Shown here piece after piece: positions 2,890 to 37,756 of a stretch of 49,919 bases of DNA. Positions within the stretch are counted from its first letter, which is position 1. Each line of letters starts with the position of its first letter. The DNA is taken from NCBI GenBank assembly GCA_002923195.1, contig BDTH01000047.1, positions 1 through 49,919 on the forward strand. Direction: 5' to 3'. Under the pieces are notes generated by a model. It was not told the origin of the DNA and ran no database searches. It saw only the letters and a list, made by a program, of their open reading frames with translations. Origin of the DNA: a bacterium BMS3Abin15. Its GTDB lineage: Bacteria; Patescibacteriota; Minisyncoccia; Moranbacterales; 2-12-FULL-40-10. A program made the position numbers and the translations under genes.

Positions 2890-2928
2890 CAGCCAAAGGT
2901 AATTATAAAAAATAACATAGTACCTTCG

Positions 2929-2955
2929 GGGGACAGAAATGTCCCCTTTTTATTT
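2929..2955 (+). terminator. Rho-independent terminator of the microprotein operon
   Basis: GGGGAC-AGAAAT-GTCCCC followed by a T tract. Confidence 0.75.
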
Positions 2956-3003
2956 TCTAAATTTATTGAAAAAAATCTTAAAATGTGAGAGAATAAAGTA
3001 ATA

Positions 3004-4152
3004 ATGAAAATCTTATTTTTTAACTACGAGTATCCACCATTGGGCGGAGGCGCGGCTAACGCGACCTCCTATATTTTGCGCGAATTTTCTAAAATTCCAG
3101 ATTTGGAAGTCGATTTAGTTGCCTCATCCATTGACAGCGAATATCATTTAGAAGAAATAGGAAACACCATTAAAATTCATCGTCTGCCTATTGGAAAAAA
3201 TGAGAAAAATATTCACTTTCAGTCACAAAAAGATTTACTGGTTTATGCTTGGAGGGCCTATTGGTTTTCGCGAAAGCTAGCTAAGGAGAATAATTATAAT
3301 TTGAGTCATTCATTTTTTACCGTGCCCTGTGGATTCTTATCCCTGATGTTAAAAAGAAAATTCAAGATACCATACATAGTGTCATTGCGCGGATCGGACG
3401 TTCCTGGCTACAGCGAACGATTTACTTTTTTATATAAAATTATCTCTCCCCTTGTGAAATCAATTTGGAAAAATGCTTCGCGGGTGGTTTCTAATAGCGA
3501 GGGGTTGAAAAACTTAGCTCTAAAAACCAATCCCAATCAGGAGATCGGAATTATTTACAACGGGGTTAGCACCGAAGAGTTTAAACCATCTGAAAAAGAA
3601 CAGAGCAATGGCTTTAAGATTATTTGTGTTTCTCGCATAACCGCTCGCAAAGGAATAAATTATTTAATTGAAGCGATTGATCAATTGGTTAAGAAAAATT
3701 ATAATGTTGAATTGGATATAGTGGGGGAGGGAAATGACAAGAAAAAACTCGAAAGTGTGGTTGAGAAAATGGGACTGGAAGAGCAAGTGAAATTTTTAGG
3801 CATTATTCCGCACGAGGAATTGCCAGCCATTTATAGCCAAGCGGACATCTTTGTTTTGCCTTCACTTAATGAGGGAATGAGCAATACGATGCTGGAGGCT
3901 CTAGCCAGCGGGCTTCCAATTATTGCAACTGATACGGGAGGCACCAGGGAACTTTTAAGTGGCGGAGATAACGGATTTATTGTTAAAATGAAAGACAGCG
4001 AAGATTTAATAGTAAAGATAGGCAGAATTCTGAGAGATAGTGATCTTCAAAAAAGAATGTCACAGAGAAGCCGTGAGGTAGCGGAAAGTATGAGCTGGGG
4101 GAAAGTAGCGAATAAATATTACGATTCCTATAAGTCAGTCACTAATGACTAA
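3004..4152 (+). CDS. Glycosyltransferase family 4 (GT-B)
   Basis: N-terminal YEYPPLGGG; C-terminal FVLPSLNEGMSNTMLEALASGLPII (EX7E). Confidence 0.92.
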   Translation: MKILFFNYEYPPLGGGAANATSYILREFSKIPDLEVDLVASSIDSEYHLEEIGNTIKIHRLPIGKNEKNIHFQSQKDLLVYAWRAYWFSRKLAKENNYNLSHSFFTVPCGFLSLMLKRKFKIPYIVSLRGSDVPGYSERFTFLYKIISPLVKSIWKNASRVVSNSEGLKNLALKTNPNQEIGIIYNGVSTEEFKPSEKEQSNGFKIICVSRITARKGINYLIEAIDQLVKKNYNVELDIVGEGNDKKKLESVVEKMGLEEQVKFLGIIPHEELPAIYSQADIFVLPSLNEGMSNTMLEALASGLPIIATDTGGTRELLSGGDNGFIVKMKDSEDLIVKIGRILRDSDLQKRMSQRSREVAESMSWGKVANKYYDSYKSVTND

Positions 4153-5078: not shown

Positions 5079-7019
5079 TTAATTGTCGACTTTCTTAAAC
5101 ACTTTTACGAAATTTCCCGGCCGATCGCCTATCTCAAGTTTCCATTCCGGCTCGGTTATTCCATCATAATATTTGTAAGCATCGATGAATCTTTCGCTGG
5201 TTCTATAACTTTTGTATTGGTAATAATATCTTATTTCTCCCCGGCGGGTCAGCACATAATAGTCGACGGGATATTGGTCCAGTTCAAAGCGGTATTTAGT
5301 GATGCATTTTCCCTTAAAAAATTCGCAGAATCCGTGGTAGTCCGTCCAGACCGTAAGATTTTCCGCATCGGGGAGTGAATTCAGATATTGCGCCGCCTCA
5401 TAGCCTCCGTAACCCCAGGCGCCAGTAATGAGATATTTTTTAGGAAGCAGGCTGTTGGTGTAATTAAAATAAAAAGGACTACACAACCAAAGACTAACTG
5501 TGCTTATAAGCATAACAACCGGAATCACTACTCGCCATCTTATCTTTTTGCGTAGCTTCGGCATTGATAAAAAGTCATAAATGCCAATGGCCGCCAGGAT
5601 CATAACTAAAGGATAAAGCATAATACTATATCTTACTGTAGCCAATAGGCCACTTTTTATCATAGCTGCTTGAAAGATGACTATAAACAAAGACAATGAA
5701 AAAATAACGAGTTCGTGCTTTGTCGGCTTAAAAACCGACTTAATCCAGATGTATAAAATTGAAATTAAAACAAGCGGTGTCAGAGAAAATATGAGTGGCT
5801 TATGTTCTAAGATTAACTTTTGATAAACAGGAAGAATATTAAAACTGGTAGCATCGCGTTTATCGAATTCAATATGTTCAAGATTGACTATGCTATTTCC
5901 ACTTATCCAGTTAGCCAAAACGAATAGGGTTAATATGATAAGAAGAGTATAAATAATACGAGGTAGAATATTTTTTAGAAATTTTAGCTTTTTTAACAAG
6001 AAGCTAATTATTTGACTGTTAAAATATAAGCTGTCCACTATTAAAAGAATGTTCAGGACAACTACTATCCAAAAAATATATCCCAATCCCTCATAACCTA
6101 TGGTGCCTTTCCAAAGGTGCTTGGATTTTATAAAAACGGCCGGCATCAAAAAGGAAAATACTGCCAGGGATCCGGCCACAATCGCAAAATATGCAACGGA
6201 AAGTTCCAGAATTTTCTTCTTTGATTTTTCAGTGTTCCCAATTTGATCGGACAGGGTGAGTAAAAAATAAAAAAGAATTACTAAAAACAAAAACGGGAAA
6301 AGTATTGCGGCAACATATTTTGTAAGAAGTGCCAGCCCCAAAAAAATAGAGGAAAGAATGGCAAACTTCCTTTTACCCCCACACCAATGTTGCTTATTCT
6401 TGTCGTGTAATTGTTCAGATATATTAATGTCGTTATTTTTTTCGTATTGGTGTGGGGGTGTACTTGTTTTAATGAAAGCTAGGAAAGCGAAAATTGACGC
6501 GGTAGAAAATCCCCACAAAAGAGAATCCGGGTTCACTATCTGCGATATCCCTAAAAGGATAGGGGATAAAAGCATTAAAACAGAGGACAGAAGGGCTATC
6601 CAGTCGTTTTCAGTCACTTTTTTGATTAGCCAAAATAGTACGAGAACGAAAAATCCATTAAAAATCAAAATAGGCAGGCGGAAAGTTAGGTTTAACTTCT
6701 CAGTTCGTTCTGAGTGATAAGCGCTTAATGTCGTATCATCTTTGATCATATGGTCGCGCGGCGTCTTGTCCCAGAGGAGTCCGATTCCGGAAACGTAAGC
6801 CAGTGTTATTCCTGGCTTATCATTTATTCTTGTTTTTTTCCATTTTCGATTAGATATTGCTTCCCAATATTGGGGAACCCTGTCATAGACCCAATAATGT
6901 TCATCAGAGGTTATAAATTTTGTCAGATGGTTAAATCCAAAAATAAAATAAATAATAACAGATACGGCCAGTAAAAATTTAATATAAAAATTATTTTTCC
7001 CTTTTTTTGTTTTTTCCAT
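5079..7019 (-). CDS. GT-C (PMT/ArnT-like) membrane glycosyltransferase with in-frame palindromic insertion
   Basis: Luminal DE motif (TSDEHYW), NPDSLLW, LALLTKY, many TM segments; paralog of the next gene. Confidence 0.8.
   Translation of the reverse strand: MEKTKKGKNNFYIKFLLAVSVIIYFIFGFNHLTKFITSDEHYWVYDRVPQYWEAISNRKWKKTRINDKPGITLAYVSGIGLLWDKTPRDHMIKDDTTLSAYHSERTEKLNLTFRLPILIFNGFFVLVLFWLIKKVTENDWIALLSSVLMLLSPILLGISQIVNPDSLLWGFSTASIFAFLAFIKTSTPPHQYEKNNDINISEQLHDKNKQHWCGGKRKFAILSSIFLGLALLTKYVAAILFPFLFLVILFYFLLTLSDQIGNTEKSKKKILELSVAYFAIVAGSLAVFSFLMPAVFIKSKHLWKGTIGYEGLGYIFWIVVVLNILLIVDSLYFNSQIISFLLKKLKFLKNILPRIIYTLLIILTLFVLANWISGNSIVNLEHIEFDKRDATSFNILPVYQKLILEHKPLIFSLTPLVLISILYIWIKSVFKPTKHELVIFSLSLFIVIFQAAMIKSGLLATVRYSIMLYPLVMILAAIGIYDFLSMPKLRKKIRWRVVIPVVMLISTVSLWLCSPFYFNYTNSLLPKKYLITGAWGYGGYEAAQYLNSLPDAENLTVWTDYHGFCEFFKGKCITKYRFELDQYPVDYYVLTRRGEIRYYYQYKSYRTSERFIDAYKYYDGITEPEWKLEIGDRPGNFVKVFKKVDN
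6376..6458. mobile_element. In-frame MITE-like element (CCCCCACACCAA termini) inside GT-C gene
   Basis: ACCCCCACACCAAT (6375-6388) and ATTGGTGTGGGGGT (6446-6459); flanks TTTA/TGTA; encodes PPHQ...HWCGG, absent from the adjacent paralog. Confidence 0.8.
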
Positions 7020-9101: not shown

Positions 9102-10844
9102 GTGAAGGTATTTTTTAAAAAAGGAACTTTTATTGCCTTGCTGGTAGCTGTTATTGCCGTCGGAATTTTTTTGCGCGGCTATAATTTTTCCGACTGGATC
9201 CATTTTGAACTAGACCAGGCAAGAGACGTTTTGGTAATATCGGAAGCGGTTGATAATGGTATAGGCAATTTGCCCCTCTTGGGCCCAAGAGCGGCGGGCA
9301 CTTTTTTACGACTAGGCCCCGCATTTTATTATCTAGAATATATTAGCGCCAAAATATTTGGAAATACTCCTTTCGGAGTAGCTTTTATCATTTTGCTCTT
9401 TTCTATTCTTACACTGCCTCTTTTTTATTTAGTTTGTCGCCGATACTTTAACAAATGGAATTCTTTGGGTCTGCTGTCAATATTTTCTGTTTCAATTTTT
9501 CTCATAATGTATTCCCGCTTCGCCTGGAACCCCAATCTGATTCCTTTTTTTGTGCTGTTGATTTTTTACTCTCTCTTAAGAGTCGTTGACAAGGAAGAAA
9601 AAAAGAGGGATTTATGGATGTATATTTTCGCGGTCTCTCTTGCTATAGCCACCCAGCTTCACTTTCTGGTACTCCTAACTATTCCAGTGGTTTCGGTCGT
9701 ATTCCTGCTAGTTAAACGACCAAGGTTTAGTTGGAAAGTTTGGGCAAGTTCATTTTTAATTGTAATATTTTTCTACTCACCGGTTATAATCAACGAAATA
9801 AAAACGGGAGGCGATAATGCTAAGGAATTTGCTGAAGCGGTTTCGGGCAAGTCACAAAACGAAAAATACAGCGTTATAGAAAAAGCCATCAGAAATTATG
9901 AAGAAAACGCAATTGGAAGTTTTTTAATCTTGAGCGGAGTGGAAAAAGCAGAAGTTGTAAAAGTTAAGACCGCACTTAAGGTTTCCAATGCATTTGAATT
10001 TAAATGCGATAAAGACTGCAGAAAAAATTTACCCTGGAGTATCACGGCTTTTATTGTTTTTTCTCTGGGAATTGTTCTTTTAGTTGTAAGATTAATAAAA
10101 GAAAAGGATGTTAGTCGGAAAAACTTTTTACTCTTTTCATTTCTATGGCTCATTGTATCTTTTATTGTTTTTCTTCCGGTTGCATACGATATTTCTCCCA
10201 GATTCTTTCTTATCACTGCCCCGCTTCCTTTTATTTTTCTCGGACTCATTTTTAATTTTATAACCAAGCTTACAAATAAAGGAAAATGGATTATTATTGC
10301 AATAATAACCGCTTTAATTGTTTCAAATTCACTAGCCATTATGACTCGCTTTTCTCAGCTTAAAAAAGCGCCTCTTGAAAATGTAAAAATAAATCCAGAC
10401 AGAATACTAAAGGAAAGGGCGCGCGTTACGCTTGAACAGCAACAATTAATAGTAAGCTACATTAGCAAAATAGTTGAGAAAAATAATTATCCTGTTTTCT
10501 TGGACAGTGAATCTCAACATGATCGGGCGCTGAAATATATCATTAGAAAGGAAGGAATGGCCGCTAGCAGTGTGAAAACAAGCAAGGTATACAGGAATGG
10601 AAATTACTTTCTTGTTTTCAGAACATCGTCAAACCTTGAGGAAGAAATCGCAAAATATAGCATAGCTTATAAAGTAATAGAAAAGAAAGAATTTGGCACA
10701 CTGATAGTTTTTAGGCTTTTGCCCGAAGAGGAGTCCATAACAGATGTTGACTGGTATTTTTCAGAAGATGACGATAATGACAGATCAGCGCCCGGGGTTC
10801 CTGAGCGCTACAATTGGAATGAGATATTTAGTAAGCCCCGTTAG
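9102..10844 (+). CDS. GT-C (ArnT/PMT-like) membrane glycosyltransferase
   Basis: FELDQARD, PLLGP, YSRFAWNPNLIPFF, ATQLH; multi-TM; GTG start. Confidence 0.8.
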   Translation: MKVFFKKGTFIALLVAVIAVGIFLRGYNFSDWIHFELDQARDVLVISEAVDNGIGNLPLLGPRAAGTFLRLGPAFYYLEYISAKIFGNTPFGVAFIILLFSILTLPLFYLVCRRYFNKWNSLGLLSIFSVSIFLIMYSRFAWNPNLIPFFVLLIFYSLLRVVDKEEKKRDLWMYIFAVSLAIATQLHFLVLLTIPVVSVVFLLVKRPRFSWKVWASSFLIVIFFYSPVIINEIKTGGDNAKEFAEAVSGKSQNEKYSVIEKAIRNYEENAIGSFLILSGVEKAEVVKVKTALKVSNAFEFKCDKDCRKNLPWSITAFIVFSLGIVLLVVRLIKEKDVSRKNFLLFSFLWLIVSFIVFLPVAYDISPRFFLITAPLPFIFLGLIFNFITKLTNKGKWIIIAIITALIVSNSLAIMTRFSQLKKAPLENVKINPDRILKERARVTLEQQQLIVSYISKIVEKNNYPVFLDSESQHDRALKYIIRKEGMAASSVKTSKVYRNGNYFLVFRTSSNLEEEIAKYSIAYKVIEKKEFGTLIVFRLLPEEESITDVDWYFSEDDDNDRSAPGVPERYNWNEIFSKPR

Positions 10845-10941
10845 AAAAGTCTGCCTTTATAATAAAAGTCTGTAATTGAATATTGAGTTAAGTCCTGTAT
10901 TTGCTGTAATAAAATTCAAACCCCGGGCTATTCTAACGGGG
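10836..10941. mobile_element. MITE-like element (CCCCGTTAGA subfamily) overlapping the stop codon of the upstream gene
   Basis: CCCCGTTAGAA ... TTCTAACGGGG; flanks TAAG/TAAA. Confidence 0.75.
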
Positions 10942-24152: not shown

Positions 24153-25598
24153 CTACCGCCCTATCCCTCTGTATATTATACCATACTTTTGAATAGCATC
24201 TTTGTCCAGGCAATTTTTTCCGTCGACAATAGCTTTAATGGAATATTTTTTAAATATGCTTGGATCAAGTTTCTTAAATTCATCGTGGTCAGTGACAAGA
24301 ATAACCGCTTTGGATTTCCTTAATAGTTCCTCTATGTTTTTCACATCTGACATATGCGGAACGTGAGGATCAAACATTATTACATCCGCATCGTGTTTTT
24401 GTAAATGCTCCAATATTTTGAAAACTGGAGATTCTCTAAGGTCTGCAACGTTAGCCTTATATGATATGCCCAGAATCCCTATGGGAGTTCCCTTCATTGG
24501 CATTTTAATACTATTTAAAGAATGTTGAAGAATATTAACTGTGTATTCTGGCATTGAGTTATTTATTTTTCTGGCAATTTTTAAAAACTCGTGGTCAAAT
24601 CCGCTAGCCTTAGCTCTTTCTATAAGATAATAAGGATCAACCGGGATACAATGACCACCAACGCCGCAACCGGGAAAATGAGGCATAAAAGCGAATGGCT
24701 TAGTAGACGCGCCTCTTATTACGTCGTCAATGTCTATATTCATTCGGTCAAACGATTTTGCTAACTCATTGACGAAAGCAATATTAACATCCCTGAATGA
24801 ATTCTCTACGATTTTAACAGCCTCAGCTTCACGAATTGATTTCATCGGATAGATTTCGGCATCAAGAATTTTTTTATAAAACTTCACAGCCAAAGATAAT
24901 CCCTTTTTACTGAAGGCGCCGACTACGCGGGGAATATTAACCACATTCCAATTAGCATCTCCTGGGTTTATTCTTTCTGGGCAGTGAGCTAGGTAATAGT
25001 CTTTTCCTACTTTGTATCCGGCCTTGGCGAATATTGGCTCAACAACCTCTTCGCATACTCCGGGATTAACAGTAGATTCTATTACTACCAGTTGTCCTTT
25101 TTTAAAATTCTTTACAATTGAAGTTACGGCTTTCTTGACCGGACTTAAATCGGGATAATATTTTTCATCTACGGGAGTAGGAACGCAAACCAAAACTATA
25201 TCTGATTTTTTAATAACCTTGGCATCGGCAGTAGCTTCTATTTTTACCCCGACACCAATTTTAGCAGAATCTTTCGAAGATATATTGGTAGAGCTGATAG
25301 ATGACTTCGTCTTGCGGTTATTATTTTTTTCAGAGCCTGTCTTGGGATTGGTGTTGGGGTTTACTTTAGGCAAGTTGTTCTCTAAAAAATCCTCCTTTAT
25401 AGGGCTTTTTCCGGAATTAATTTTCTTAATCTTTTTTCGATCATTTTCCAATCCAAAAACCCTAAACCCACTTAAGGCAGATTGTACAGCCAATGGAAGA
25501 CCAACATAACCCATTCCGATTACGCAAACCGTTTGTTTTAACCTGTTTTTCCCTTTATTTTTCATAGTTATATTGAATTTATCAACATTTTTCATCAT
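24153..25598 (-). CDS. Nucleotide-sugar (UDP-GlcNAc/ManNAc-type) dehydrogenase with in-frame palindromic insertion
   Basis: IGMGYVGLP, CVPTP, IESTVNPG, CPERINPG, ENSFRDVNIAF, GVGGHCIPVDP, DLRESP. Confidence 0.93.
   Translation of the reverse strand: MMKNVDKFNITMKNKGKNRLKQTVCVIGMGYVGLPLAVQSALSGFRVFGLENDRKKIKKINSGKSPIKEDFLENNLPKVNPNTNPKTGSEKNNNRKTKSSISSTNISSKDSAKIGVGVKIEATADAKVIKKSDIVLVCVPTPVDEKYYPDLSPVKKAVTSIVKNFKKGQLVVIESTVNPGVCEEVVEPIFAKAGYKVGKDYYLAHCPERINPGDANWNVVNIPRVVGAFSKKGLSLAVKFYKKILDAEIYPMKSIREAEAVKIVENSFRDVNIAFVNELAKSFDRMNIDIDDVIRGASTKPFAFMPHFPGCGVGGHCIPVDPYYLIERAKASGFDHEFLKIARKINNSMPEYTVNILQHSLNSIKMPMKGTPIGILGISYKANVADLRESPVFKILEHLQKHDADVIMFDPHVPHMSDVKNIEELLRKSKAVILVTDHDEFKKLDPSIFKKYSIKAIVDGKNCLDKDAIQKYGIIYRGIGR
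25247..25359. mobile_element. In-frame MITE-like element inside the dehydrogenase gene
   Basis: ACCCCGACACCAAT (25246-59) and ATTGGTGTTGGGGT (25347-60); exact TTTA/TTTA flanks; encodes PNTNPK...KIGVGV. Confidence 0.85.
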
Positions 25599-37524: not shown

Positions 37525-37636
37525 CCCGCACCAATTCCCTGTAGTTAATTTATTATTTAATTTAGGCTAAGCCGCAGGCGATTCCGTGGTACAATTTATA
37601 AATCATTAATGACTTCATTCGGAATTTGGTGCGGGG
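37525..37636. repeat. CCCGCACCAA-terminated palindromic element in the rpmA leader
   Basis: CCCGCACCAATTCC ... GGAATTTGGTGCGGGG. Confidence 0.7.
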
Positions 37637-37688: not shown

Positions 37689-37756
37689 CCCCGCACTAAC
37701 TTGACATTTACAGAGCCAAAATTAGCGCTTTGCGCTAATGCCAAGTTAGTGCGGGG
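37689..37756. mobile_element. MITE-like element (CCCCGCACTAA subfamily)
   Basis: 15-bp IR CCCCGCACTAACTTG/CAAGTTAGTGCGGGG; exact TCAA/TCAA flanks; internal ATTAGCGC/GCGCTAAT hairpin. Confidence 0.85.

Follow-up and report, generated by a model that had tools for sequence, protein, structure and literature searches.

The window analysed here is a stretch of 49,919 nucleotides that makes up contig BDTH01000047.1 of bacterium BMS3Abin15 (assembly GCA_002923195.1; contig C47 of a genome of 1.22 Mb in 114 contigs with 37% GC). It carries a gene for a nucleotide-sugar dehydrogenase whose Rossmann domain is interrupted in frame by a palindromic element with a core of 113 nt (Table 1). Enzymes of the UDP-glucose/GDP-mannose dehydrogenase family begin with a Rossmann domain that binds NAD, continue with a central domain and end with a domain that binds UDP. 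The same three-domain architecture is found in the product of the host gene, in which PF03721, PF00984 and PF03720 (UDPG_MGDP_dh_N, central and C, respectively) all score over the Pfam cut-off, and TIGR03026 (nucleotide sugar dehydrogenase) matches the protein with E = 9e-123 and 410 bits. Homologues number in the thousands in a database search, most of the best 120 being 425–430 amino acids in length, and the top relative in the PDB is 4r16. The motifs GVGGHCIPVDP (which holds the catalytic Cys of the GGxC motif), CVPTP and RESP are invariant in 43 homologues and intact in the window protein; together with the three Pfam domains, this bears out the retention of the catalytic motifs noted in the initial annotation of this DNA. 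As set out below, the insert is very probably a fossil, left by a small palindromic element that was mobile but not autonomous and was comparable to a miniature inverted-repeat transposable element (MITE) or a Rickettsia palindromic element (RPE).

Alignments of 13 and of 43 sequences place 39 extra columns between ...NNLPK and KIEAT in the window protein and in two relatives, P0002 (80% identity) and P0003 (83%). The insert is absent from every other sequence in these alignments, from P0004 on, and 4r16 has a connector of approximately five residues at this position. At the DNA level the window was compared with three orthologues (P0002, P0003 and P0004). P0004, which is 73% identical to the window protein in the search and 80% identical across the aligned columns, provides the empty site: it reads CCTAAAGTAAAAATAGAAGC, and the window reads CCTAAAGTAAA, the 113-nt core and TAAAAATAGAAGC, a net gain of 117 bp or core plus 4 nt. 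The empty junction in the DNA of this one orthologue is GTA/AAA (the slash marking the junction), and the boundaries of the insert are ambiguous within the repeated TAAA. The inverted-repeat arms (25246–25259 and 25347–25360) are 14 nt long and 93% complementary. The alignments, 4r16 and a structural model described below all place a low-complexity peptide, rich in Ser, Lys and Asn, in the short connector ahead of the CVPTP strand, as the initial annotation had proposed for an inserted element with inverted ends. Its length of 39 codons is also correct; the peptide that was written out there has only 38 residues. A long loop in homologues lacking the inverted repeat, which would have spoken against an insertion, was looked for, and such orthologues were found to have the short connector. 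In all, the connector is short in over 100 orthologues.

The assemblies of P0002 and P0003 are independent and derive from other samples, and both hold the insert at an identical position. This rules out an assembly artefact and points to a single insertion in a common ancestor of this genome and the two related lineages. Repeated occupation of the dehydrogenase site was considered and rejected, as the insert occurs only in the two closest of the best 120 homologues. The long homologues that were aligned (P0023, P0078, P0095 and P0117) owe their extra length to N-terminal extensions and not to the insert.

The ends of the insert belong to a genome-wide family. A scan of the genome revealed approximately 38 short paired elements of 44–131 nt with the ends CCCCCACACC...GGTGTGGGGG, as well as two long copies of 295–297 nt with the same ends. 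Perfect paired termini occur 22 times in this genome versus 0–5 times in each of 40 relatives, and a reversed control pattern occurs 0 times. Unpaired matches to the terminus are about as frequent as estimated by chance, so that the real copies are essentially all paired. The window itself contains two exact paired-termini matches, compared with none in 100 shuffles.

Fifteen of the 38 short copies lie within long open reading frames (ORFs). The hosts identified by Pfam are WecG/TagA, TatD, ValRS, YchF, PheT, YebC, ThiI (two copies), UppS, an NAD-dependent epimerase and PriA; those in the window are the PMT-like transferase, the dehydrogenase and a family 4 glycosyltransferase (GT4; two copies). 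In all 15 the core length is 2 modulo 3 and the copy is free of stop codons in the host frame, the chance of the former being (1/3)^15 or approximately 7e-8. Core plus 4 nt is thus a multiple of three and the host gene stays open. The 23 intergenic copies are spread over the three length classes as 8/8/7. Deleting core plus 4 nt from the non-genic copies joined no substantial ORFs (the best being 62 + 53 amino acids), so the frame rule is not circular and there is no clear out-of-frame intragenic copy. The termini are read in all three frames, as HPHT...GVGV, PPHQ...WCGG and TPTP..., and the only recurrent peptides are the tetrapeptides and pentapeptides encoded by the ends (PHTK...GVGV, PPHQ...WCGG and TPTP...). 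Rickettsia palindromic elements have been described as behaving in this way (PMC10969869), and the frame rule argues that the inserts are translated rather than spliced out.

Table 1. Positions in the window of the dehydrogenase gene, its insert and the sibling elements.
Feature	Position	Strand	Description and basis
Nucleotide-sugar (UDP-N-acetyl-hexosamine type) dehydrogenase	24153..25598	-	481 aa with insert; ORF, Pfam, TIGR03026, 4r16
Inserted palindromic element, core of 113 nt	25247..25359		With 4 flanking nt, net gain of 117 bp (39 codons); empty site in orthologue, 39-column gap, family termini
Left terminal inverted repeat CCCCGACACCAAT	25247..25259		One change from family consensus CCCCCACACC
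Right terminal inverted repeat ATTGGTGTTGGGG	25347..25359		One change from consensus GGTGTGGGGG
Left flank TTTA (T-N-N-A)	25243..25246		Direct reading; family-wide flank consensus
Right flank TTTA (T-N-N-A)	25360..25363		Direct reading; empty site in orthologue
Sibling element, 83 nt, perfect termini	6376..6458		In frame in PMT-like membrane glycosyltransferase ORF 5079-7019(-), other frame (PPHQ...WCGG)
Sibling element, 80 nt, left end decayed to CCACCACACC	28920..28999		In frame in GT4 glycosyltransferase 28594-29904(+), site A
Sibling element, 83 nt, perfect termini	29175..29257		In frame in GT4 glycosyltransferase 28594-29904(+), site B

Comparison of 40 copies defines the ends more closely. 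Positions 1–10 are nearly invariant in both arms; positions 11–13 vary among copies and are complementary within a copy in 38–39 of the 40, which indicates that a 13-bp stem is maintained. Outside the core, T stands at position -4 in 71 of 80 flanks and A at position -1 in 69 of 80, and the inner two positions vary. In 12 of 40 copies the two flanking 4-mers match each other, compared with five expected by permutation (p = 5e-5), and the matching pairs include rare 4-mers such as TCAA and CTTG. A 4-bp repeat by itself is uninformative in DNA of 37% GC. The TTTA repeat of the dehydrogenase copy, present on both sides exactly as first reported, is nevertheless taken as real because of the gain of 117 bp over the empty site, the termini shared with the family and the matching of flanks above expectation. 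Its interpretation as a simple target duplication is improbable, since the flanks of the family are identical in only approximately 30% of the copies. Empty sites are known for three insertions (the dehydrogenase and sites A and B of the GT4 gene), and the net gain is core plus 4 nt at all three. From these few sites, it appears that a host T-W/W-A receives N-A-core-T-N. Neither an intact target duplication nor one that has decayed at random would look like this. Two other models are contradicted by the empty sites, one in which an element A-core-T duplicates 2 bp and one with a net gain of 1 nt; only a net gain of 4 nt fits.

Among the three insert-bearing orthologues, the ratio of non-synonymous to synonymous substitution rates (dN/dS) is 0.07–0.09 for the host gene versus 0.30–0.40 for the insert. 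The gene has therefore remained strongly constrained with the insert in place, and these ratios indicate strong purifying selection on the host since the insertion and weak constraint on the insert itself. In an AlphaFold2 model calculated with the 43-sequence alignment (mean predicted local distance difference test score, pLDDT, of 77), residues 80–116 have a pLDDT below 50 and no secondary structure, and lie between a helix (70–75) and a strand (120–123). The inserted codons would be translated into a hydrophilic loop, disordered and exposed at the surface, which the enzyme appears to tolerate. For the dehydrogenase itself the outcome would be unremarkable, a passenger carried in a connector at the surface and tolerated there.

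The copy in the dehydrogenase is old, being shared with two relatives and having decaying ends. Its termini are decayed further in P0002 and P0003, where they read CCCCTCTATCAAT...ATTGGCGTTGGAG and CCCCAACACTAAT...ATTGGTGTCGGGA, respectively. In single-stranded DNA folding, its stem has z = -1.45, no better than shuffled sequence, compared with -4.3 and -7.8 for its perfect siblings. It is probably a decaying fossil that is now immobile.

A candidate for the mobilizing partner is provided by the long copies (C35:60474–60770 and C24:16011–16305), each of which is filled by an ORF of 84 amino acids, that on C35 lying at 60505–60756. The protein matches the GIY-YIG domain of Pfam with E = 1.5e-17 over residues 1–71, and the solved structures nearest to it are those of the UPF0213 proteins 1zg2 and 1ywl. 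The CCCCCACACC arm lies 3–4 nt ahead of the ATG, and the GGTGTGGGGG arm lies approximately 20 nt past the stop codon. Among 319 genomes of the order, six more, from six other genera, carry units of 284–303 nt with perfect CCCCCACACC...GGTGTGGGGG ends and a homologous protein, the start codon again standing 3–4 nt from the left end in each of them. The units are 62–81% identical in DNA across genera, and no similarity was found between the flanks of units from different genomes, which indicates that the unit has moved as a whole. Short copies are most expanded in two genomes (22 and 11 copies), and the unit is present in both. Short copies occur in four of seven genomes with the unit versus six of 40 without it, a modest association. 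The unit of approximately 297 bp is likely, from these comparisons, to be the mobilizing partner of the short elements.

The GT4 gene of the window holds two elements, and its site A has a history of its own. The site is occupied in at least six other orthologues with 57–63% identity (P0123, P0125, P0126, P0141, P0161 and P0178), and it is empty in the closest orthologue (P0122, 78%) and in most others. The occupied genes are scattered on a maximum-likelihood tree, whose well-supported branches require five or more gains or losses. In four occupied orthologues read as DNA, the 26 terminal nucleotides at site A are identical; the fourfold-degenerate sites of these genes are saturated (23–54% identity) and the interiors of the elements are 44–64% identical. 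The ends may have been constrained as DNA over very long periods with occasional precise loss, or the one site may have been invaded repeatedly. Either would be unusual, and both hint at a cycle of seamless, enzyme-driven insertion and excision. Ordinary transposon decay explains neither the constant ends nor the repeated occupation of one site.

Based on these observations, a mechanism can be suggested. The 117 bp (N-A, the 113-nt core and T-N) would have entered a T-A/A-A site in the helix-to-strand connector of the Rossmann domain. The family may be mobilized in trans by the 84-residue stand-alone GIY-YIG nuclease, with the 13-bp stem of the two ends, probably as a hairpin of single-stranded DNA, as the recognized structure and with cutting within the flanking T-N-N-A. 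Selection would purge insertions that shift the frame or bear a stop codon, leaving frame-preserving copies in genes. A more far-reaching proposal, which we put forward tentatively and consider rather doubtful, is that the units of approximately 297 bp are autonomous elements using the GIY-YIG nuclease as their transposase, that the elements of 44–131 nt are their non-autonomous partners, and that both insertion and excision at T-W/W-A are seamless. If true, this would account for persistence in essential genes, the scattered occupancy of one site in the glycosyltransferase and the unchanging ends, and would define a class of minimal prokaryotic mobile elements, not described before, through which proteins gain new loops.

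The identity of the ends at GT4 site A despite saturated host sites looks like constraint at the DNA level, and might instead mean that the hairpin pairs are kept for a function of the host, the GIY-YIG protein being a domesticated partner and not a transposase. The pairs could then serve as marks for an Ssn-like single-strand nuclease that controls incoming DNA in transformation, or as a structural or replication signal, and the dehydrogenase copy would be one of these sites that chanced to fall within a gene; the Ssn nucleases of Neisseria do act on hairpin repeats and modulate transformation (PMC11893778). We regard a host function as unlikely, however, since the ends are being lost in the dehydrogenase copy and in its orthologues in P0002 and P0003, the copy number is low and patchy (22 perfect copies here versus 0–5 in relatives), the unit stands in an unrelated context in each genome and the copies are insertions relative to orthologues. 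With decaying ends, patchy copies and unrelated contexts, selfish spread fits better than a conserved host function. The same 13-bp stem could, in principle, mark a processing site at which the insert is removed after transcription or translation in the manner of an intron or intein. This is highly improbable, because a spliced element would need no reading frame, yet all 15 intragenic copies are multiples of three when 4 nt are added, all are stop-free and no clear gene with an out-of-frame copy was found; moreover, peptides of 15–39 residues are far too short for an intein fold. Finally, the low-complexity Ser/Lys/Asn-rich peptide might be taken for a lineage-specific loop, arisen by local duplication or slippage, or for an assembly artefact that resembles a mobile element by chance. 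Hardly any weight can be given to this explanation: the same 10–13-nt ends bound dozens of other insertions, the insert is present in three independent assemblies, no tandem or local source sequence was found, and the family scan, the empty site and the control counts already contradict it.

Several observations weigh against a mobile palindromic family with a GIY-YIG partner as the explanation of the insert. Perfect short copies are missing from three of the seven genomes that carry a perfect long unit, and a perfect long unit is missing from six genomes in which short copies occur. The differences between flanks are confined to the inner two positions, unlike the decay of a simple target duplication. 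The argument that the inserts are translated draws on the frame rule only. The interiors of the copies align no better than shuffled sequence, either mutually or with the GIY-YIG unit; the sole interior similarity is that of the two GIY-YIG units with each other. The short elements therefore did not arise by simple deletion from the units in their present form. Capture of host DNA was considered as the source of the interiors and rejected, since no second genomic copy was found, only chance matches of 16–23 nt. Lastly, the proportion of synonymous differences (pS) between the window and the two relatives is 0.33–0.37 for the insert and 0.60–0.62 for the host gene, the former being calculated from 27 synonymous sites only. 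The low value of the insert could be due to a later exchange of sequence, to sampling noise or to constraint at the nucleotide level. Within the insert, the window and both relatives agree fully over two stretches, of 18 and 22 nt.

The elements share features with several known systems. RPE-1 to RPE-10 of Rickettsia (Ogata et al. 2000/2002, as summarised in PMC10969869) are likewise short palindromic repeats that lie in frame in unrelated housekeeping genes, with a large intragenic share, and are translated as an extra peptide compatible with protein fold and function. In-frame insertion compatible with the host protein is also seen here, in the 15 of 38 intragenic copies, the disordered loop and the dN/dS of 0.07–0.09 for the host. 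The families of RPE, however, share internal sequence and the encoded peptide, whereas here only the 10–13-nt ends are common and neither homology of the interiors nor a conserved peptide was found when the copies were compared among themselves. In addition, the RPE hosts are Alphaproteobacteria and not Patescibacteria, the elements here measure 44–131 nt and a candidate autonomous GIY-YIG unit is visible. Like MITEs (PMC10969869), the elements are small, non-coding and present in many copies, with an AT-rich short target and terminal inverted repeats (arms of 13–14 nt in the dehydrogenase copy, and ten invariant plus three co-varying positions family-wide), and a longer coding element with the same ends exists in seven genomes. 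They differ from MITEs in having no shared internal sequence, in having T-N-N-A flanks on both sides that are mostly non-identical, and in that the putative autonomous element encodes a GIY-YIG nuclease and not a known transposase.

The putative partner itself and its flanking ends resemble the Ssn nucleases and their NTS/SRM hairpin repeats, an architecture that has been likened to an insertion sequence and for which site-specific cleavage of single-stranded DNA beside the hairpin has been demonstrated (Chenal et al. 2025; PMC11893778). Both systems have a small stand-alone, single-domain GIY-YIG protein in the range of approximately 80–150 residues (84 residues here, 94 in SsnA), encoded by a gene that is bracketed on both sides by an inverted-repeat motif dispersed in many genomic copies. 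The hairpins of Ssn are compact (20–50 nt), whereas the arms here stand 20–110 nt apart or on either side of the gene, and the nearest solved relatives of the 84-residue protein belong to UPF0213. Neither Patescibacteria nor intragenic copies came up in a text search of PMC11893778, which raised the spread of hairpin repeats as a question and left it open. A further parallel is offered by the repetitive extragenic palindromic (REP) sequences, their paired forms (REPINs) and the IS200/IS605-like Y1 enzymes known as RAYTs, where the partner, whose single-copy gene has the same repeats on either side, recognizes the palindromes in hairpin form. In the IS200/IS605 family, a tetranucleotide beside the hairpin is important. 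The partner here, however, is a GIY-YIG nuclease and not an HUH/Y1 enzyme; REPs are almost always extragenic, and the spacers of REPINs are conserved within a family. A search of the available literature on MITEs or GIY-YIG repeats in Patescibacteria and the candidate phyla radiation retrieved no description of these elements. Taken as a whole, the system is an RPE-like family, made up of palindromic elements that lie in frame in genes of Patescibacteria and have a plausible partner in the GIY-YIG protein.

Most documented cases of selfish DNA that is translated in frame within essential genes come from Rickettsia; the same would occur here in a 1.2-Mb Patescibacteria (Moranbacteria-like) genome, where it affects aminoacyl-tRNA synthetases, PriA, UppS and enzymes of the cell envelope. 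Such elements would be a source of new surface loops, and of artefacts of annotation and alignment, in proteins of the candidate phyla radiation. The candidate machinery is very small, consisting of an 84-residue GIY-YIG protein and a 13-bp stem.

Related elements and genes were noted elsewhere in the genome. Approximately 12 small stand-alone GIY-YIG genes encode proteins of 46–87 amino acids (contigs C16, C24, C35, C70, C85, C88, C93, C95 and C17). Several of them adjoin GC-rich hairpins or tRNA genes, some are truncated and several are bracketed by CCC... inverted ends of their own. Short elements of sister subfamilies with CCC(C)... inverted ends (CCCCGCACTAA, CCCCGTTAGAAA and CCCGCACCAATT) lie in the window at 233–304, 10836–10941, 37525–37635 and 37689–37756, the last of which is flanked exactly by TCAA on both sides. 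Another small GIY-YIG gene, on contig C93 (approximately 2912–3193), is bracketed by ends that match CCCCGTTAGAAA. In another genus (G099:C5:13500–14050), the same termini enclose a complete tRNA-Arg(GCG) (243–316 of that locus, within an element at 221–345), and a partial duplicate of tRNA-Arg, TCTGGTTGCGGTCCAGAAGGCCGC, lies directly outside the left end of the element. The arrangement suggests that a tRNA gene was invaded by an element that brought a replacement tRNA with it.

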